Below, in pieces: positions 5,729 to 34,416 of a stretch of 45,103 nucleotides of DNA. Every line of letters starts with the position of its first letter. Positions within the stretch are counted from its first letter, which is position 1. The notes beneath the pieces were generated by a model. That model did no database searches, had not been told where the DNA came from, and saw only the letters and a program-made list of their open reading frames with translations. The stretch covers positions 79,314 to 124,416 of the forward strand of contig CARLBU010000004.1 in assembly GCA_949012915.1 (NCBI GenBank). Direction: 5' to 3'. The position numbers were made by a program, and so were the translations under genes. Origin of the DNA: an uncultured Lachnospiraceae bacterium. GTDB taxonomy: Bacteria; Bacillota; Clostridia; Lachnospirales; Lachnospiraceae.

Positions 5729-7222
5729 ATGAAACGTTCAGCAGGTATTTTACTTCCCATTACCAGTTTGCCTTCCCGCTATGGGATTGGCTGTTTTTCA
5801 AAGAGTGCATATGATTTTATAGACTGGCTGAAAGAAGCCGGACAGACTTATTGGCAGATTTTGCCGCTTGGACCTACCAGTTATGGAGATTCTCCTTATC
5901 AGTCATTTTCTACTTTTGCAGGAAATCCTTATTTTATTAGTTTGGAGGCACTGATAGAGGAAGGGGTTTTGACAGAGGAGGAGTGTGAAGAGGCGGATTT
6001 TGGAAGTCAGTTAGAAGATATTGATTATGAGAAACTCTATCAAAATCGGTATCCTTTGCTTCGAAAGGCGTATGAACGCAGCAAGGTTAGTGAAAATGCG
6101 GATTATCTGCGGTTTGTAGAGGAAAATAAGTGGTGGCTTTCGGACTATGCGTTGTTTATGGCGGTTAAGGATCGGTTTGAGGGCGTAGCATGGACGCAGT
6201 GGGCAGAGGATATTCGGCTGCGTTGGGGATTTGCGATGGATTATTATCGCAGGGAGTTATATTTTGAGATAGAATTTCAGCAGTATATGCAGTTTAAGTT
6301 TTTTGAACAGTGGAGGCGGTTAAAGGCGTATGCCAATCAGAAGGGGATTGCCTTGATTGGGGATATTCCTATCTATGTGGCAATGGACAGTGCGGATACT
6401 TGGGCACATCCAGAATTGTTCCAGTTAGATGAACAGAATGTACCTTGTGCGGTAGCAGGATGTCCGCCGGATGGGTTTTCGGCAGACGGGCAGCTTTGGG
6501 GGAATCCTTTGTATCGCTGGGAGTATCATAAGCAGACTGGATATGAATGGTGGGTTTCAAGACTGGCTTATTGTTTTCGGCTGTATGATGTTGTGCGGAT
6601 TGATCATTTTCGGGGATTTGATGAGTATTATTCGATTCCTTATGGTGCGGAATCGGCGAAGATTGGGCATTGGGAAAAAGGTCCTGGGATTGAGCTGTTT
6701 CGCTGTGTAGAGCAGCGGCTTGGATGGCATGAGGTAATCGCAGAGGATTTGGGGTATGTTACGGATTCGGTGCGGCAGTTGGTTGCAGACAGTGGATTTC
6801 CGGGAATGAAGGTGTTGGAGTTTGCTTTTGATTCTAGGGATTCTGGATCGGCAAATGACTATCTGCCTCATAATTATATGGAAAATAGTGTGGCTTATAC
6901 AGGGACTCATGATAATGAGACAATCTGCGGGTGGTTTGAGTCGATTTCAAAGGCAGAGCAGCAGATGGCAAGGGAGTATCTTTGTGATCTTTATACGCCG
7001 AAGGAGTTGTTGTATAAGGCGTTTATTGCTTTGGTGATGCGAAGTAATGCAAAGACTTGTATTATTCCAATGCAGGATTATCTTGGGTATGATAATACAT
7101 GTCGGATTAATACGCCTTCTACAGTGGGGACGAACTGGAGGTGGCGTTTGACGGAAGAGGATTTGTCAAAGGAATTGCAGGAAGAGATTTTGGGTATTGC
7201 AAAGCGGTATGGGAGGATTTAA
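5729..7222 (+). CDS. malQ: 4-alpha-glucanotransferase (amylomaltase, GH77)
   Basis: 497 aa with a typical GH77 N-terminus MKRSAGILLPITSLPSRYGIG and conserved regions (..GDIPIYVA.., ..HFRGF..). Its start abuts the stop codon of the upstream gene. Confidence 0.9.
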   Translation: MKRSAGILLPITSLPSRYGIGCFSKSAYDFIDWLKEAGQTYWQILPLGPTSYGDSPYQSFSTFAGNPYFISLEALIEEGVLTEEECEEADFGSQLEDIDYEKLYQNRYPLLRKAYERSKVSENADYLRFVEENKWWLSDYALFMAVKDRFEGVAWTQWAEDIRLRWGFAMDYYRRELYFEIEFQQYMQFKFFEQWRRLKAYANQKGIALIGDIPIYVAMDSADTWAHPELFQLDEQNVPCAVAGCPPDGFSADGQLWGNPLYRWEYHKQTGYEWWVSRLAYCFRLYDVVRIDHFRGFDEYYSIPYGAESAKIGHWEKGPGIELFRCVEQRLGWHEVIAEDLGYVTDSVRQLVADSGFPGMKVLEFAFDSRDSGSANDYLPHNYMENSVAYTGTHDNETICGWFESISKAEQQMAREYLCDLYTPKELLYKAFIALVMRSNAKTCIIPMQDYLGYDNTCRINTPSTVGTNWRWRLTEEDLSKELQEEILGIAKRYGRI

Positions 7223-7250
7223 GAGGGGGAAAGAGGATTTCGGAGGGGAC

Positions 7251-7485
7251 GCCAGAGTGCATTAGGGGTACACGGTTCCGCTCTTCGGAAAGTAAGAGGC
7301 TCTAAGACTTCTGGTGTTGGGTGTATCTAACCGGACGGATCGGGGTGCAATTCGCCCGTACAGCGGGCTAAACACACCCCTTTTTTTGCCATTCGAGAAT
7401 GGCAAAAAATCCTAATGGATCGACAGAAGTCTAAGAGCCTCTAACTTTCCTACGAAGTCACCGTGTACCCCTAATGCACTCTGGC
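7251..7485. repeat. Family-2 repeat, copy 1. A ~185-nt conserved core carrying terminators, flanked by perfect 22-bp inverted arms found only in this copy.
   Basis: The core ccggacggatcggggtgcaattcgcccgtacagcgggctaaacacaccccTTTTTTTgccattcgagaatggcAAAAAAt is also present at 33288-33527. The arms cagagtgcattaggggtacacg and cgtgtacccctaatgcactctg are exact reverse complements. Confidence 0.8.
7352..7410. terminator. Tandem intrinsic terminators inside the family-2 core. The first is GGGGTG..CACCCC followed by T7 on the plus strand; the second is a bidirectional T6-GCCATTC-GAG-GAATGGC-A6 hairpin.
   Basis: A GC-rich stem is followed by a T-run, and a perfect 7-bp hairpin is symmetrically flanked by T6 and A6. 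They lie downstream of malQ. Confidence 0.65.
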
Positions 7486-7681
7486 TGTATTATGGCACAA
7501 TTTATGTTTTGTTTTTACCTTTTGTTGTTTTTTGTTATGAAATTAGATTGATTTTGGGTGTTTGCTGGATATATTTTTTTATTGGTTGGTTTATGATTTT
7601 TTTTTCTTTTCTTTTATTTTATTTATTTATTCCAGTGTTCCGTGTTTGTTATGTGTTTTTTGTTTTTATTTTAACCTCATT

Positions 7682-7828
7682 AAGGAAGTCCCCCGCTTTC
7701 GCCTTGGCGGCTTAGAAGCGGGGGACTTCCTTGTTTCAGTGGGAGTGCAGACTCCCACTGAAAAGTTGCGGTAGCAGCTATGAGGTTATGAGCAAGTAGC
7801 GAAGCAGATTGCGAATATCCGATTTGAC
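7682..7828 (+). repeat. Family-3 repeat, copy 1: an 18-bp GC-rich hairpin (AAGGAAGTCCCCCGCTTC/GAAGCGGGGGACTTCCTT) plus a 46-nt module aggttatgagcaagtagcgaagcRgattgcgaatatccgatttgac
   Basis: The hairpin and module recur at 33648-33752 and 29487-29583 with the same hairpin orientation. In the third copy the module orientation is reversed. Confidence 0.75.
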
Positions 7829-7994
7829 TAAAAGTGTAGAAAAAAGTGTTATTTGGGATGAAAAAGTGGTATAGTAGGATAAGAATAGTTTTGTTTGCAT
7901 TTATAAATTTGCGTTTGCAGAGATAGTAGAGGATAGAAAATTGGGTTTTGATAATGGGTATTATGTTGAAAGGTGTAGAGGGGGAAGTTTGCTG

Positions 7995-8687
7995 ATGGGA
8001 GAAATAGGAATGGAATGGAATCGATATAGGATTATGATAATAGAAGATGATCAGGGGATACAGGTACAGTTAAAAAATTTATTGGCCGGAAATGGATATG
8101 AAGTGGCTACGGTTGCGGATTTTTCTAAGACGATAGAGGAATTAAAGGTTTTTGCACCGCATTTGGTTCTTTTGGATATCAAACTGCCGGAGAAGAGTGG
8201 GTTTGAATTGTGTTCGCAGATTCGGGTTTTTTCGGATATGCCGATTGTATTTGTAACGAGCAGCAATACGGATATGGATGAGTTAAATAGTATTATGCTG
8301 GGGGGAGATGCATTTATTACAAAGCCTTATAATACCGCTATTTTGCTTGCGAAGATTGCTGCTTTGCTGCGGCGGGTGTATGCTTTTAAGCAGGCGGAGG
8401 TTTTTAGATGGAATGGGGCTGTTTTGTATTTAGAAAGCAGTCGGATAGAGTATCGGGGACAAAAAGCGGAATTAACGAAAAATGAGTTAAAGATTCTTTT
8501 TTATCTTTTTAAAAATGCGGGGAAGATTTGTTCTCGTAATGATATAGTGGATTTTCTTTGGGATAATCGACTCTATATAGATGATAATGCTCTTAGTGTG
8601 AATATGACTCGGATTCGTGAGAAACTGGCAGCAATCGGTTTGAAGGATTTTATTAAGACGAAGCATAGGCAGGGGTATTTGTTATGA
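7995..8687 (+). CDS. OmpR/PhoB-family response regulator (BceR-like)
   Basis: A receiver domain (IMIIEDD..LLDIKLP) plus a winged-helix DNA-binding domain. The first ATG in the ORF is at 7941; start 7995 is chosen because it follows the SD agagggggaa. Its stop overlaps the kinase start (ATGA). Confidence 0.85.
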   Translation: MGEIGMEWNRYRIMIIEDDQGIQVQLKNLLAGNGYEVATVADFSKTIEELKVFAPHLVLLDIKLPEKSGFELCSQIRVFSDMPIVFVTSSNTDMDELNSIMLGGDAFITKPYNTAILLAKIAALLRRVYAFKQAEVFRWNGAVLYLESSRIEYRGQKAELTKNELKILFYLFKNAGKICSRNDIVDFLWDNRLYIDDNALSVNMTRIREKLAAIGLKDFIKTKHRQGYLL

Positions 8688-9706
8688 ATGGAGGACAGTA
8701 TTGGAAGAATCTGCTGCCGGTTATTTTTATCAATCTTTTGGGTATGCTGGTGCTGGCTTTGTTTTTAATGGCTAATGGGAATGTTGTTTCGGTTGTTTTG
8801 TTTATTGTAGTTGTTTGGACAGTGGTTTTTATTTTTTATGTCTGTGTTCTTTATGGTATAAGAAAAAGATATTTTCGTCAGTTGTTAGAGACGGCGGAGC
8901 AGTTAGAGGAGCGGTATTTAATACCGGAGGTGATTGCTGTGCCAAAGAGAGCAGGGGAACAGGTGTTTTATCAGATTATGAAACTGGCGGAAAAGTCGAT
9001 GCTTGAAAAGATTGGTGAGGTGCAGAGGGAGCGAAAGGAGTATAAAGAATATATTGAACAGTGGATTCATGAGGTAAAAACGCCGATTACCGCAATAAAG
9101 CTGATATGTGTAAATAATCGGTTTGAGTTTACCAGGGATTTGCTGGCGGAATTGGAAAATGTAAATCGGTTTACAGAGCAGACCCTCTATTATGCCCGCA
9201 GTGAACATACAGAAAAAGATTATTTGATTCGGGAAGTTAGGCTTGGGGATATGGTACATGAGGCGATTGGGGAGAATAAATATCTTCTTCGGCAAAGCAA
9301 TATGACGGTTCTAGTGGATGAGATGGAATATTGTGTTTATACCGATAGTAAGTGGGTGCAGTTTATTTTGAATCAGATTATTAGTAATGCGGTAAAGTAT
9401 CGTACCGAGCAGCCGGTGCTGCATTTTTTTGCAGCAGAGAAAAAGGGGCAGGTGGTTTTGTATGCAGAGGATAATGGGATGGGCATATCGAAAGGGGATT
9501 TGTGCCGTATTTTTGAAAAAGGATTTACCGGGCAGAATGGGAGGAGGGTTTCTAATTCTACTGGTATGGGGCTGTATCTTTGCAGACGTCTTTGTGATAA
9601 GTTAGGAATTGGATTGGCTGTAGATTCGGAAGATTCGGAAGAAAAGGGAACTATGGTGTCCCTTTCTTTTTATAGAAATGACTTTGTGGATGGAGTGCAG
9701 AATTGA
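8684..9706 (+). CDS. Sensor histidine kinase (BceS-like intramembrane-sensing type)
   Basis: Two N-terminal TM helices with a minimal extracellular loop, an H-box HEVKTPITAIKL, and an HATPase_c domain (..DNGMGIS.., ..GTGMGLYL..). Confidence 0.85.
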   Translation: MNGGQYWKNLLPVIFINLLGMLVLALFLMANGNVVSVVLFIVVVWTVVFIFYVCVLYGIRKRYFRQLLETAEQLEERYLIPEVIAVPKRAGEQVFYQIMKLAEKSMLEKIGEVQRERKEYKEYIEQWIHEVKTPITAIKLICVNNRFEFTRDLLAELENVNRFTEQTLYYARSEHTEKDYLIREVRLGDMVHEAIGENKYLLRQSNMTVLVDEMEYCVYTDSKWVQFILNQIISNAVKYRTEQPVLHFFAAEKKGQVVLYAEDNGMGISKGDLCRIFEKGFTGQNGRRVSNSTGMGLYLCRRLCDKLGIGLAVDSEDSEEKGTMVSLSFYRNDFVDGVQN

Positions 9707-12931: not shown

Positions 12932-12960
12932 AGAAAAGGAAGATACTTTATAAAAAATAA

Positions 12961-12995
12961 AAATACAACACTTGTTAGTAAAATGTTGTATTTTT
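12961..12995. other. Left recombinase core-type site: two ~14-bp inverted arms around the 7-bp spacer GTTAGTA
   Basis: aaatacaacacttGTTAGTAaaatgttgtattttt. Its reverse complement is nearly identical to the site at 13748-13784, so the two sites are in inverted orientation. Confidence 0.6.
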
Positions 12996-13015
12996 ATATT
13001 TTTTATATCGGTGTT

Positions 13016-13044
13016 TTTATAAAATACTTTATAGCGTTTTTGAA
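13016..13044 (-). promoter_or_regulatory. Candidate outward-facing promoter on the minus strand (TTCAAA-17-TATAAA) at the left end of the invertible segment
   Basis: Read on the minus strand: TTCAAAaacgctataaagtatttTATAAA. In the present orientation it reads leftward, away from csrA-flagellin. After inversion it would read toward them. Confidence 0.3.
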
Positions 13045-13073
13045 TTTTTTTAAATTTTTTATTTTTCAAGGGA

Positions 13074-13116
13074 AATGCCGCTTATCCTCTGTCGATAAGC
13101 GGCATTTTTTTTTGTG
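13074..13116 (+). terminator. Intrinsic terminator: GCCGCTTATC-ctctgtc-GATAAGCGGC followed by T9
   Basis: A perfect 10-bp stem is followed by a 9-T run on the plus strand. It lies inside the invertible segment, between bceB and the recombinase 3' end. Confidence 0.75.
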
Positions 13117-13122
13117 ATTGGA

Positions 13123-13713
13123 TTAGAGTGTAATTTTTAAATACACTTCATCTCTTTCGTCTTGTTCAATACTTAAATATCGCTTGGTAATGCTGTAGGA
13201 GGAGTGATTGTAAAGATCCATTAAAAGGGCTGGAGGGGTTCCCTGTTTCCACGCATGATAACCGAATGTCTTCCTTAGAGAGTGGCAGCTGATATGTTGA
13301 TCCAGTCCAGATGCTTTGGCAGCAGTACAGATAATTCGGTAGGCTTGAGAACGACTGATTGGCTCATTCTTTCCTTTCTGACTTAAGAAGAGATACTGCT
13401 CTTTTTCATAGGGTTTTTCCTGGAAGGAATACGAGAGGTAGTTTTTTAGGGTGGTGCAGATAGAGCGGTTTAATGCAATCGTGCGGGATTTTCCAGTCTT
13501 TTGTTCTATTACTTCTAAATGTTTTTTCATGGTTTTAGTATGGTCATCATAGATATCGTTCCATTTTAATGTGAGAATATCGGAGATTCGCAGTGCTGTA
13601 TTTAGTCCCAATATAATCAGGGTATAGTTTCTTGGCTGAGGTTTTTGCAGCAAATAATAATTTTTAAATTGGTTCAGTGCATCTTTGCTTTTAATAGGCT
13701 GTGTTGTGCTCAT
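13123..13713 (-). CDS. Small tyrosine site-specific recombinase (catalytic domain only, FimB/FimE-sized)
   Basis: 196 aa with catalytic residues in order: R in ..LNTALRISD.., K in ..KTGKSR.., HxxR in ..HSLRKTFG.., H in ..LYNHSS.., and Y in ..ITKRYL... There is no N-terminal core-binding domain. Confidence 0.8.
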   Translation of the reverse strand: MSTTQPIKSKDALNQFKNYYLLQKPQPRNYTLIILGLNTALRISDILTLKWNDIYDDHTKTMKKHLEVIEQKTGKSRTIALNRSICTTLKNYLSYSFQEKPYEKEQYLFLSQKGKNEPISRSQAYRIICTAAKASGLDQHISCHSLRKTFGYHAWKQGTPPALLMDLYNHSSYSITKRYLSIEQDERDEVYLKITL

Positions 13714-13747
13714 GATAGATCCTCCGTTCGTTGAATTTTGCTTTCTT

Positions 13748-13784
13748 AAAAATGCAACATTTTACTAACAAATGTTGCATTTTC
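13748..13784. other. Right recombinase core-type site: aaaatgcaacattt-TACTAAC-aaatgttgcatttt
   Basis: 14-bp inverted arms flank a 7-bp asymmetric spacer. It is the inverted partner of 12961-12995, and the two bracket the recombinase gene. Confidence 0.6.
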
Positions 13785-13826
13785 ATATTGGCACAGAAGA
13801 CATGGAGAAAACAAGGAGGTTTTTAG

Positions 13827-23466: not shown

Positions 23467-23618
23467 GGTATGGAAAGGGAAATTCCCTGCTGGGGCCGTT
23501 TGCACTAAGGCTTTCTCGCAGCGGACACATAAGGCACGAAAGTACCGTGCCTAAGTGCCGGCGGAAAGCAATACCCCTGCAGAGAATTCCCTTTCCATAC
23601 CTACTGTATATACCGACC
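23467..23618 (+). repeat. Family-1 palindromic repeat, copy C
   Basis: Outer stem ggtatggaaagggaaattccctgc pairs with gcagagaattccctttccatacc. Core is conserved. Tail is tactgtatataccgacc. Confidence 0.8.
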
Positions 23619-23712
23619 TGTTGGCAGATAAATCCTGTTTTGATTTTGTATTCTTAATAAACGGTGAATAGATATAGAGTAGAGATATGCTTATGCTATT
23701 GATTTGATATTA

Positions 23713-23760
23713 AAAAAAACGTTTTAAATTAGAAAATAAAAAAACGTTTTAAATTAGAAA
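23713..23760. repeat. Direct tandem repeat, 2 x ~23 bp (aaaaaacgttttaaattagaaaa)
   Basis: Two adjacent identical units inside the AT-rich segment bounded by family-1 copies C and D. Confidence 0.7.
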
Positions 23761-23835
23761 AGAATATTAAGGCGAATCGTTTAGTTGAAAATATGGATAA
23801 ATTTTATACAGCAGAGATGGTGCAAAATGAATAGG

Positions 23836-23985
23836 AAGGAACAGACAGCTTGTATCGAAGGAGGTTTCTTTGCAGGGGTATTGCTTCCCGCCGGCACTTA
23901 GGCACGGTATTTTCGTGCCTTATGTGTCCGCTGCGAGGAAGCCTTAGTGCAAACGGCCCCAGCAAAGAAACCTCCTTCGATACAG
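23836..23985 (-). repeat. Family-1 palindromic repeat, copy D (inverted relative to C)
   Basis: Outer stem ctgtatcgaaggaggtttctttgc pairs with gcaaagaaacctccttcgatacag, a perfect 24 bp. Core is conserved. The tail faces inward. Confidence 0.8.
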
Positions 23986-24298
23986 GCGTACGGGATAGCT
24001 ATAAATACAATAGGAATAAATATACAAAAAATAGACAGTAAATTTAACCAAACAGGATTTGTAGATTTTTCCTTTTTTGGCACTTATTTTATAAAAATTT
24101 TAGCAGTTTTAAACACTTATAAATCCTGTTAAATTTTATTTTTATGGATTTATTGGTGTTTTTTTCTATATTTTCAAGAAAAAAATGGGTTATTTTATTT
24201 GCTTTTATCAAAAGATGTCAACTTATGACTTGCATTAATTTTTATTTTGGATTATAGTTAGATAAAGTACAGTATATCAATGGAAAGAGAGGACGTTC

Positions 24299-29426: not shown

Positions 29427-29486
29427 AAAGAGGATGTCTTACATTAGAAAAGACAAGGAATTTGATAAAAAGCCGTTTTTTAGTCA

Positions 29487-29583
29487 AAGGAAGTCCCCCC
29501 GCTGCTTTCTGGCTTAGAAGGGGGACTTCTTTGATAGGGTCAAATCGGATATTCGCAATCCGTTTTGTTACTTGCTCATAACC
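29487..29583. repeat. Family-3 repeat, copy 3: a GC-rich hairpin plus the module in inverted orientation
   Basis: aaggaagtccccccgctgctttctggcttagaagggggacttctttg is followed by gtcaaatcggatattcgcaatccgttttgttacttgctcataacct, which is the reverse complement of the module seen at 7782-7828. It lies downstream of rnfB. Confidence 0.7.
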
Positions 29584-29698
29584 TATACTGAAATCGAATG
29601 GGATATCGGTTCTAAATTTTTTTATACTTAGAATCGGCATCCTATTTTATTTAAAAACCTACTTTGAATCAGATTATTAGTAATAAGGAGAAAAGAAT

Positions 29699-30583
29699 AT
29701 GCAAAACAAACAATATGGTGAGAAATTGGCGACTGGAGGAATATTAGTGGCTTTAGCTTTTATTTTTAGCTATTTAGAGTCTCTGTTTCCTGTGCTTATC
29801 CCTATACCCGGAATAAAACTTGGATTGGCAAATCTGGTTACAGTAATTGCTCTCTATACAATAGGAGAAAAAGCCGCTTTTTTTATTTCTATTCTTCGGA
29901 TCTTACTGAGCGGTTTTGCATTTAGCGGGATATTTCCTATGATTTATGGGTTATCTGGAGGAATCCTTAGTTTTTTAGGAATGGTTTTTTTAAAGCAAAA
30001 AAAATGCTGCAGCCTATATGGCATTAGTATGGCAGGAGGAGCACTGCACAATATCGGACAGATAGGAATAGCAGCCATTGTACTAAAAAGCAGCAGTATT
30101 TTTACTTATTTGGGAATTTTGCTGCCCGCAGGTGTTCTGACAGGAGGAGTCATTGGAGTAATTGCTTCTAAGGTTTTGCAAAGTTTAAAAGGGCAGCACA
30201 ATCAGCAAAAGATAGGGATATTAGACGGAACAATAGGGCTTGGCTTTGTCTTAATAGGAGGACTGGTACTTGGCGGAGTCGAACTTGCAAAGAGAGAGGG
30301 AGAGGGTGTTATAGTTTATAAAGATGCATCTTTTTATCAAGAATATCCGCTTTCTCAGGACGGGGTTTATCGGCTCGATTGGGGAAATGGAAACTATACG
30401 ATATTAACAATACAGAATAAAACAGCCTTTATCAGTGAATCCTCTTGTCCCGATTTACTCTGTGTAAAAGAACGGGCAATCTCTAGAACACAAGAAAGAA
30501 TCGTTTGTCTGCCTAATCGAGTAGAAGTTTTTATTTCTACTGCAAAAGAAGGGGAAAATGGACTAGATGCAATAGTGGAATAA
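29699..30583 (+). CDS. Gx-transporter-family (Hpre_diP_synt_I-like) membrane protein fused to a C-terminal NusG_II (DUF1312) domain
   Basis: The N-terminus has ~5 TM helices (..GGILVALAFIFSYLESLFP..). The C-terminus (..DGVYRLDWGNGNYTILTIQNKTAFISESSCPDLLCVKERAISRTQERIVCLPNRVEVFI..) has the NusG domain-II-like pattern. Confidence 0.55.
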   Translation: MQNKQYGEKLATGGILVALAFIFSYLESLFPVLIPIPGIKLGLANLVTVIALYTIGEKAAFFISILRILLSGFAFSGIFPMIYGLSGGILSFLGMVFLKQKKCCSLYGISMAGGALHNIGQIGIAAIVLKSSSIFTYLGILLPAGVLTGGVIGVIASKVLQSLKGQHNQQKIGILDGTIGLGFVLIGGLVLGGVELAKREGEGVIVYKDASFYQEYPLSQDGVYRLDWGNGNYTILTIQNKTAFISESSCPDLLCVKERAISRTQERIVCLPNRVEVFISTAKEGENGLDAIVE

Positions 30584-33201: not shown

Positions 33202-33287
33202 GGGACATGTTGAAAGGGAGGGGAGCGGAGAGGAAGTTTTATGTTTTATGGCTGGAATAAAGAGTGGGGTGTGTCAAGACGGACGCT

Positions 33288-33527
33288 AGAGTTGGGAAGC
33301 AATATCTTTCTGTTGTTCCGCTCTACGGAAAGTAAGAAAATCTAAGGCTTCTGCATTTACCTGTATCCAACCGGACGGACCGGGGTGCAATTCGCCCGTA
33401 CAACGGGCTAAACACACCCCTTTTTTTGCCATTCGAGAATGGCAAAAAATCCTAGAGATCGACAGAAGCCTAAGATTTTCTAACTTTCCTCCGAAGTCAC
33501 AACAGAAAGATATTGCTTCCCAACTCT
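33288..33527. repeat. Family-2 repeat, copy 2. Same terminator-bearing core as copy 1, with different, perfectly inverted 29-bp arms.
   Basis: Arms agagttgggaagcaatatctttctgtt and aacagaaagatattgcttcccaactct are exact reverse complements and unrelated to the copy-1 arms. The core is >90% identical to 7275-7465. Confidence 0.8.
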
Positions 33528-33647
33528 GGCTGTTTTCTGCTGCTTGTAATATTTTGTATCTTGCCTGTTCCTCCTGTGCTTTTTGCTGGCAGGGGCAGAG
33601 GCAGTGGGGCATAAAATAGTTGAAACCGCCGAACCTCGGCACAATGG

Positions 33648-33752
33648 TCTGGCGGCTTAGAAGCGGGGACTTCCTTGATGAGGTTATGAGCAAGTAGCGA
33701 AGCGGATTGCGAATATCCGATTTGACTTTCGTATCTTTCCGTATTCGCAATC
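33648..33752 (+). repeat. Family-3 repeat, copy 2 (3' half of the hairpin only, plus the module and a downstream hairpin)
   Basis: tggcggcttagaagcggggacttccttg-atg-aggttatgagcaagtagcgaagcggattgcgaatatccgatttgac, followed by ..tattcgcaatc, which pairs with gattgcgaata. Confidence 0.7.
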
Positions 33753-33813: not shown

Positions 33814-34416
33814 CTAATTTTCTAAACTTTTAAAAAAGTTTACGGCAAGTAAACCTATCATGCAGACAAATATTCCCGTTGGGAGTAATACAAGAAAAAC
33901 GGCATTGCTAAATTTATCAAACAATATTCCGTAAACCATTTGCCCTAACGGTTGGGCACACATAGAAATAGTAGCGATATATGCCATCACTTTTCCCGTT
34001 AAATGGTTAGGGGTTCTTTGCTGTATCATAGAGAGAGCAAAAATAGAAAAAATGCAAGCGGCAATCTGCATACCACAAAACGAAATAATATTGACAATGT
34101 ATCGTGTAATTGCTGTTGTTGGAAGAAGAAAAATAATGCCCGCCGGAAAAAGAAATACTCCAAGAACAACAACTACGATTGATAGTTTTCCGGGTTTCAT
34201 TTTCTCTGTTAATAGTCCGGCTGCAATGCTCCCAATGATTGCAGCTAATCCCAACGCACTTTCTACAAAACCATAATATTCAGCATTTAAGCTCAGTACA
34301 TTCCGCACAATATAAGGCAGACTTACTATAGCTGTTCCCATTACAAAAAAACTAACCGATGTGCTTAAAAGCAACATTTTTAAAATACAGGACTGTTCTT
34401 TGCCTATAAATCGCAT
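33814..34416 (-). CDS. MFS-like membrane protein, 6-TM C-terminal half. The upstream frame stays open ~255 nt with no ATG/GTG/TTG start.
   Basis: A 200-aa, 6-TM ORF. The same frame continues upstream through another TM-like stretch (..LYAGVLCFFVTAVFECFI..) to a TGA near 34670 without an in-frame start codon. It may be a truncated or decayed transporter gene. Confidence 0.4.
   Translation of the reverse strand: MRFIGKEQSCILKMLLLSTSVSFFVMGTAIVSLPYIVRNVLSLNAEYYGFVESALGLAAIIGSIAAGLLTEKMKPGKLSIVVVVLGVFLFPAGIIFLLPTTAITRYIVNIISFCGMQIAACIFSIFALSMIQQRTPNHLTGKVMAYIATISMCAQPLGQMVYGILFDKFSNAVFLVLLPTGIFVCMIGLLAVNFFKSLEN

Follow-up and report, generated by a model that had tools for sequence, protein, structure and literature searches.

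A modular, structured and dispersed repeat of gut Lachnospiraceae carries a hairpin homologous to P3 of Clostridiales-1

We analyzed a stretch of 45,103 nt from an uncultured Lachnospiraceae bacterium (GCA_949012915.1, contig CARLBU010000004.1, positions 79,314–124,416 of the forward strand), hereafter the window, and a short intergenic repeat within it, termed family 3. A preliminary description of the window had presented family 3 as a mosaic of a hairpin and a 46-nt module, found in three copies and twice next to another repeat, family 2. We find that family 3 represents a single lineage within a large and unannotated group of short repeats in gut Lachnospiraceae, which are modular and structured and reach tens to more than 100 copies in carrier genomes. 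By base-by-base comparison, the 46-nt module, M, is homologous to the P3 hairpin of the Clostridiales-1 motif (RF01699). We lean, with some reserve, toward the reading that family 3 is a non-autonomous, modular, structured, mobile-like repeat, related to Clostridiales-1 through M.

Copies outside the window were collected in two censuses. In the genome census, the exact 22-mer GATTGCGAATATCCGATTTGAC was searched in one genome per species, and the 8-kb tiles around the matches were examined, giving at least 118 stretches. In the metagenome census, a looser M pattern was used, giving at least 120 stretches, mostly from the human gut and comprising several subfamilies. Nearly all exact matches lay in three uncultured metagenome-assembled genomes (MAGs): MGBC128194 (at least 77 copies) and MGBC136627 (at least 34), which are mouse-gut Lachnospiraceae, and SRR15730550_bin.21 (at least 13). 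Matches were often about 30 nt from a contig end, as is expected of a repeat that disrupts assembly. No exact match was found in viral contigs and none in plasmids; human-fecal contigs labeled as phage are unverified and unannotated, and served only as diverged homologues.

Seventy full copies were delimited. Eighteen belong to a 116-nt class composed of a hairpin H and M, 35 belong to a 162-nt class in which an insert S stands between H and M, and the others are near or intermediate in size. A full unit begins with TTTAACC, continues with a helix P1 that closes a junction containing H with or without the hairpins S1 and S2, and ends with M and a terminal ...TTGAC; no open reading frame (ORF) lies inside it. 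The ends are fixed, at TTTAACC... on the left and ...CCGATTTGAC(T) on the right, and each copy has flanks of its own, unrelated to those of the others. Neither a target-site duplication nor an overall terminal inverted repeat was found in the 70 copies. The left flank is T-rich (95%, 78% and 79% T at positions −1, −2 and −3 before AACC) and is not a defined tetra- or pentanucleotide target. Expansions are genome-specific: all 21 full copies in MGBC136627 are of the 162-nt class and 10 of them are identical, while the 41 in MGBC128194 are all distinct. The parts also occur alone, in various orders and in both loop orientations, so that the term mosaic was well chosen. Solo M sits in tight gaps (at locus L098 it begins 20 nt past a stop codon and stops 8 nt before the next ORF), solo H is a palindrome of about 80 nt in either loop orientation, and tandem and shortened forms exist. 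On one metagenome contig (L222:700–1100), three family-3-type units stand head-to-tail with a period of 162 nt.

The window holds M (AGGTTATGAGCAAGTAGCGAAGCRGATTGCGAATATCCGATTTGAC) at three sites, each with H material beside it. The 22-mer and the 16-mer AGGTTATGAGCAAGTA occur exactly three times each, while shuffled controls expect 0.00 and 0.03, which bears out the three positions given in the preliminary description. The window was also scanned over its full 45 kb, with filters off, using a covariance model, R1, that was built only from the 21 P3 segments of the Clostridiales-1 alignment of Weinberg et al. (2010). The parts of the three copies are as follows.

7670–7829 (+): family-3 copy 1, complete, of the 162-nt class (here 156–160 nt), reading AACC...GATTTGAC with TTT before it and T after it; its ends match the consensus termini of the 70 full copies elsewhere.
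7672–7680 (+): 5' arm of P1, TAACCTCAT, pairing with 7780–7788 in the fold; the arms covary in relatives.
7682–7732 (+): hairpin H, complete, with 18-bp arms AAGGAAGTCCCCCGCTT/GAAGCGGGGGACTTCCTT; the loop is flipped and the consensus TGGGTT bulge is missing.
7733–7779 (+): insert S, 47 nt, with hairpins S1 (7734–7763) and S2 (7764–7779), from BLAST unit annotation and the fold; the arms covary in relatives.
7780–7788 (+): 3' arm of P1, ATGAGGTTA, from the fold; it shares bases with the 5' arm of the outer stem of M.
7783–7828 (+): M of copy 1, a GGTTAT-GA-GCAA...TTGC-GA-ATATCC hairpin with tail GATTTGAC; R1 19.6 bits, E 0.014.
33650–33676 (+): H remnant of copy 2, the 3' 27 nt only of a 5'-truncated unit; the sequence to its left is unrelated.
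33681–33726 (+): M of copy 2, 100% identical to the mouse-gut MAG consensus; R1 26.1 bits, E 4.5e-4.
33742–33752 (−): 11-nt remnant of an inverted M (TATTCGCAATC), 3' of copy 2; inverted M/m2 pairs occur at other loci, e.g., L092.
29539–29584 (−): M of copy 3, 93% identical to the consensus; R1 25.3 bits, E 6.8e-4.
29483–29538 (−): H-type unit after the M of copy 3, composed of CCTATC, a hairpin (29486–29532) and a TTTGAC end.

These boundaries refine the earlier picture of the three copies. Copy 1 had been described as hairpin plus module, and both are present, but the S insert and the outer stem TAACCTCAT/ATGAGGTTA had been missed. Copy 2 does lack the 5' half of its hairpin, as had been noted. 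The pairing gattgcgaata/tattcgcaatc, reported between the module and nearby sequence, exists at copy 2 and is explained by the 11-nt inverted-M remnant. The claim that the module of copy 3 is inverted relative to its hairpin proved incorrect: M is followed by an H-type unit, both on the minus strand, and the same arrangement recurs at L031, L037, L079 and L114. The hairpin of copy 3 is a diverged, shorter version of H. In copies 1 and 2, the H loop is flipped compared with its usual orientation, the consensus of other genomes.

All three copies of the window are fixed within the species, and they show partial degeneration: the flipped H loop, the 5' truncation and the M that precedes a minus-strand H-type unit. 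Copies 1 and 2 are present in all strains of the species with 99.7–100% identity, and the element of copy 3 is present at the rnfB site within the same species. In relatives with 84–85% RnfB identity, the gap between rnfB and the next gene is only about 25–33 nt, compared with 272 nt including copy 3 in the window. Exact empty-site boundaries were not found, relatives at 84–92% RnfB identity being too diverged and cross-species loci being unalignable outside the element. In a relative with 92% RnfB identity, a different repeat, CCACGCCGGACGCATGAATC, stands twice after rnfB (L121:6767–6843, L122:3020–3107), and both contigs stop there. Around copy 2, a gene-caller ORF of 154 aa (33286–33750, −) that runs across both repeat families almost certainly does not represent a real gene. 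An ORF that converges on copy 2, 33814–34416 (−), covers just the C-terminal half of the MFS_1 profile; in strain L125, this place is occupied by a 491-aa ORF.

Next, we examined the structure of the element and the strand on which it folds. Copy 1 (7669–7830) folds with −86.8 kcal/mol (z = −10.8 relative to shuffles) into a three-way junction followed by M. The 3' arm of P1 overlaps the 5' arm of the outer M stem; thus the P1 and M-outer pairings are alternatives. M hardly varies between lineages of the mouse gut and the human gut. In diverged relatives, the arms of P1, of the two parts of H, and of S1 and S2 change their sequence and yet stay complementary. The arms of P1, for example, are AACCTCAT/ATGAGGTT, AACCGAAT/ATTCGGTT, AACCAAAT/ATTTGGTT and GAACGCAG/CTGCGTTC in different relatives. 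A census of pairing in eight divergent representatives, with arms typed by hand, yielded 41 double-sided pair changes. Read on the M strand, there were 15 G·U pairs and only one A·C mismatch (p = 5e-4), an excess that identifies the M strand as the folded strand, as RNA or as single-stranded DNA, and neither the duplex nor the bottom strand. Recent copies within one genome have scattered stem mismatches with no clear strand bias (40 G·U, 28 A·C, a count that rests partly on an imperfect register of the inner H stem). A closing helix between the termini was considered; a 4-bp UUAA/UUGA pairing, or UGAA/UUUA in another subfamily, is possible but too weak to claim. Retroposition through the bottom strand, prompted by the T run of the left flank, is disfavored, the folded strand being the top strand.

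Clostridiales-1 was the only recurrent Rfam candidate for family 3. The full RF01699 model always scored below its gathering score of 48, with 17.3 bits at 7708–7855 in the window and 24.8, 21.9 and 20.3 bits at L042, L002 and L092. With R1, by contrast, the three best matches in the window were exactly the three M sites, at the scores listed above, and the next match had 15 bits. The features that mark P3, a conserved GA/GA internal loop and a GAGNNN...NNNCGA stem, are all present in M. M matches P3 nearly base for base, with the distal stem-loop deleted; a P3 for comparison is that of NZ_AAVO02000012, AUAU GAGAAA G UAGC GA(..16 nt..)A GC GGA UUUCGA AUA. The stem change from GAGAAA/UUUCGA to GAGCAA/UUGCGA is compensatory, the conserved bases of the internal loop are the same, and the tail of M, CGAUUU, corresponds to the start of Clostridiales-1 P4. 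On these grounds M is homologous to P3, and the missing distal stem-loop accounts for the weak RF01699 matches.

The element as a whole, however, is not a Clostridiales-1 RNA. In Clostridiales-1, P1 encloses P2, P3 and P4; in family 3, conservation stops 8 nt past the M hairpin and gives way to unique flanks, P4 and an enclosing P1 are lacking, and M is preceded by another domain, in which H, S1 and S2 are closed by a P1 of its own. Consistently, the P4 and P1 columns remained unmatched in the cmscan alignment to RF01699. A further difference is the modularity of family 3, in which M and H can stand alone and tandem forms occur. What the two share is their occurrence in gut Clostridiales, their multiple copies, the lack of a consistent gene neighbor and the status of an orphan. 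The original alignment contains many Clostridiales-1 copies on NZ_ABOU02 contigs, and its discoverers judged the motif a probable RNA (Weinberg et al. 2010, PMC2864571).

The placement of copies relative to genes is biased but not restricted. Between genes of the same direction, M lies on the gene strand in 36 cases and on the opposite strand in 10 (78%, p = 1.6e-4), and convergent (15) and divergent (11) regions are occupied too. Among 183 non-redundant copies, 78 are followed on their own strand, within 200 nt, by a ribosome-binding site (RBS) and the beginning of a long ORF, and for 26 these lie within 40 nt. No recurrent multi-copy protein was found near copies among 612 ORFs of the 118 genome loci, and none recurred within 2.5 kb of M among 731 ORFs of the 120 metagenome loci. 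ORF clustering revealed no transposase near the copies in these 118 and 120 loci, and none was found in the window. An outward promoter starting from the terminal TTGAC was rejected as a general role, as in many copies the RBS follows too closely for a −10 box to fit.

Several known systems were compared with family 3. REP/BIME elements of Proteobacteria and BOX elements of Streptococcus pneumoniae are short, hairpin-forming, high-copy, intergenic, modular, non-coding repeats that are co-transcribed with their neighbors. Family 3 resembles them in its short palindromic units, high copy number, intergenic location and mosaics in both orientations, although we know of no sequence relation to them. 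No RAYT-type or other transposase was found near its copies (118 + 120 loci). It differs in that one module, M, keeps its sequence even between distant hosts, in that the other modules keep their structure only, and in its strong strand polarity. Non-autonomous elements derived from IS200/IS605 insertion sequences (PATE-like) share with family 3 the lack of terminal inverted repeats and target-site duplications, hairpins near both ends and a short conserved motif where the left end joins the flank; they also share folding that is specific to one strand and a bias in orientation. The hairpins at the two ends of IS200/IS605 elements are usually similar, whereas the left and right hairpins of family 3 are unrelated; furthermore, none of the 238 loci yielded a tnpA or tnpB gene with ends that match.

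Other candidates were rejected. A classical miniature inverted-repeat transposable element does not fit, as the termini TTTAACC... and ...GATTTGAC do not form an inverted repeat, the 70 copies are not bordered by direct repeats, and only the H sub-unit has inverted arms. The left end resembles the RYYYAAC motif of an integron attC site, but the right end is not complementary to it (read by eye). Matches to ohsC, Ref55, Spy779816, RAGATH-25, CRISPR-DR4 and miRNA families were generic hairpin matches below threshold, and no tRNA or transfer-messenger RNA was found.

We then asked how family 3 is linked to family 2, with which it had been suggested to form a larger composite element. Family 2 corresponds to the TwoAYGGAY RNA (RF01731), and its copies were searched with a purpose-built covariance model, R2, made from 30 family-2 copies. 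The relevant features of the window are the following.

7251–7485 (−): family-2 copy 1, a TwoAYGGAY RNA with a long basal stem; RF01731 66.7 bits (gathering score 43), E 6.8e-11, at 7280–7457; fold −145.8 kcal/mol.
7486–7669 (+): variable spacer between families 2 and 3 at copy 1, 184 nt of low complexity (62% T, 6% C), with no match in other loci.
33285–33530 (−): family-2 copy 2, of TwoAYGGAY type, 88–92% identical to copy 1; R2 157 bits.

The RF01731 match was obtained in E-value mode; a gathering-mode scan of the window returned none, and the match was lost on a shorter stretch. Family 3 itself had no RF01731 match. The basal stem of family 2 is about 60 bp long, its outer part varying between copies while staying complementary, and the AYGGAY hexamers (ACGGAT, ATGGAT) are read on the strand opposite to the Rfam match.

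Where the two families co-occur, their order and relative orientation are fixed; the shared order had been noticed for the window. At both family-2 copies of the window, family 3 stands at a distance of about 200–350 nt, with side and orientation alike, and the same polarity holds across MGBC128194, where all family-2 matches of the genome loci were found. The orientation was one and the same in 9/9 M copies with family 2 at most 600 nt upstream, and the opposite in 5/5 M copies with family 2 downstream. Family 3 always occupied one particular side of family 2 (11 cases against 0), or in 5/5 when independent single-copy family-2 loci are counted. Family-2 doublets in MGBC128194 were face to face, that is, divergent in the Rfam orientation, in 10 out of 10 loci (L008, L022, L032, L034, L038, L039, L067, L071, L079 and L112), with family 3 between the members in 5 of the 10. 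The two families as one moving or functional unit, joined by a pyrimidine-rich spacer, would explain this polarity, and repeats at fixed positions beside the TwoAYGGAY RNAs of Pseudomonas have been reported (preprint 10.64898/2026.09.22.753630).

As a general rule, however, such a composite is largely refuted, and we regard it as very improbable. Family 2 is absent within 600 nt of 66 out of 75 M copies (88%) that have enough upstream sequence, and it has no match in the loci of MGBC136627 or SRR15730550_bin.21. Neither BLAST nor R2 found it in 100 human-gut loci with family-3 relatives, while in a control R2 recovered both window copies and diverged ones. Of the family-2 copies whose flanks are complete, half lack a family-3 neighbor, and the spacers differ completely from locus to locus. 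Even within the window, the pyrimidine-rich middle applies to copy 1 (62% T, 68% pyrimidine) but hardly to copy 2, with only 55% pyrimidine. Elsewhere, the corresponding flank of family 2 often carries locus-specific tandem arrays (units of about 35–65 nt) or low-complexity DNA; examples are L039:7366–7872, L049:~1–775, L043:4726–5000, L080:5206–5500 and L112:1558–1914. In conclusion, the adjacency of the two families is real but secondary, polar and facultative. It is plausible that the T-rich flank of family 2 is a favored landing zone, with family 3 inserting after T runs.

In Pseudomonas, TwoAYGGAY RNAs are multi-copy and mainly form divergent doublets, with repeats at defined positions beside them, and no repeat association was reported for Bacillota (preprint 10.64898/2026.09.22.753630). 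The doublets described here are likewise divergent, and family 3, tandem arrays or low-complexity DNA fill the same side. The repeats differ, being Clostridiales-1-related units rather than REPs or GMTBT 5-mers, and the association is facultative and was seen in only two genomes.

How, then, should family 3 itself be read? The simplest proposal, ordinary hairpins at gene ends (terminators or attenuators) or chance similarity, draws on the GC-rich hairpin and on the position of copies 1 and 2 downstream of genes, but is refuted and may be set aside with near certainty. H is followed by GTTTCAG... or GATGAGG... and not by a U-tract, and no terminator-like site lies in 7200–8000, in agreement with the preliminary description, which had not regarded the hairpin as an obvious terminator. 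Chance is countered by the shuffled controls and by hundreds of near-identical copies in other genomes. The preliminary description had also named what would overturn its view, namely that family 3 occurs mostly without family 2 and that its members are simple terminator-like hairpins varying freely; the former is largely what we observe, while the units prove to be discrete, their ends being fixed and their structure conserved.

The reading that we favor holds that family 3 would spread non-autonomously, in the manner of REP/BIME/BOX elements. Most likely it would be copied in trans by a host- or insertion-sequence-encoded enzyme that recognizes the folded single strand, with M as the putative sequence-specific recognition module and the insertion point after a short T run. 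After insertion, host transcripts would carry it along as a passive passenger, a highly stable structure that is not a terminator. Some observations weigh against it. No mobilizing enzyme was found in the loci examined and no strain-level pair of filled and empty sites was found, and mobility is therefore deduced from distribution. H and M are unlike each other, contrary to the usual IS200/IS605 ends. Moreover, covariation, the invariance of M, the sense bias and the frequent placement upstream of an RBS fit a functional RNA equally well.

Such an RNA would be a structured domain of new architecture in a Clostridiales-1 superfamily, located within, or processed from, mRNA leaders and intercistronic regions. 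It would act through the invariant M, for instance by binding a protein at the tandem G·A internal loops, possibly with a switch between P1 and M-outer pairing, and its copy number would reflect regulon-like use and not selfish spread. We consider this possible, though unlikely. The 41 compensatory changes with their G·U excess, the near invariance of M in mouse and human gut lineages, its homology to a motif judged a probable RNA, the 36:10 sense bias and the 26 copies that end within 40 nt of an RBS and start codon all argue for it. So does the comparison of L006 with L086, loci of two species, in which the element is identical at 159/162 positions while the flanking orthologous protein is only 65% identical and the intergenic DNA cannot be aligned. 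On the other hand, no conserved promoter or terminator accompanies the element, conservation begins and ends abruptly at its ends, and the neighboring genes are unrelated, with all contexts in use, including antisense, convergent and divergent ones. Truncated, rearranged and tandem copies are frequent, new stem mismatches within a genome have no clear strand bias (with the caveat on register given above), and patchy presence with genome-specific bursts is typical of mobile DNA. A bolder version is doubtful in our view: that family 3 is a new kind of structured RNA, abundant in the gut microbiome and with an architecture that is sister to Clostridiales-1, acting in host transcripts through a protein- or ligand-binding 46-nt M and a P1/M-outer switch, and that its partnership with TwoAYGGAY is a conserved functional pairing with hairpin repeats, as with the REP arrays of Pseudomonas. 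Mobile repeat and functional RNA are not mutually exclusive.

The window contains additional repeats. Family 1 consists of elements of about 150 nt (228–385, 981–1137, 23472–23620 and 23830–23993) whose 31-bp stems covary between copies. They form two inverted pairs, one flanking a GNAT acetyltransferase gene (399–851) and the other a 207-nt spacer. Family 1 also occurs in MGBC128194 loci L011, L087, L064 and L002 and has no Rfam match. The 150-aa ORF between family-1 repeats was considered as a Y1 transposase and rejected, as it is the GNAT acetyltransferase. Between the two downstream family-1 copies lies a tandem duplication of a 25-nt A/T-rich unit, AAAAAAACGTTTTAAATTAGAAAAK (23713–23762). 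A 196-aa tyrosine recombinase (Phage_integrase, 13123–13713, −) is enclosed by 43-nt inverted repeats (12954–12996 and 13747–13789), and the whole, 12954–13789, looks like a small invertible or insertion-sequence-like unit. Finally, a 25-nt repeat, TAYTTTGAATCAGATTATTAGTAAT, occurs at 9364–9388 and 29660–29684 with 96% identity, the second copy just upstream of the RBS of a gene at 29699.

These results place one hairpin of Clostridiales-1, an orphan since 2010, within a larger, modular, dispersed and apparently mobile family of the mouse and human gut, and suggest that Clostridiales-1 is better regarded as a component of a repeat system than as a single small RNA gene. In practical terms, the repeats break metagenome assemblies, and spurious ORFs are called over their copies (e.g., 33286–33750). 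The near-invariant 46-nt M could be used as bait for the protein that binds or mobilizes the element. The TwoAYGGAY RNAs of Bacillota also gather repeats on one defined side, which extends the 2026 observation in Pseudomonas, with a link that is facultative here.

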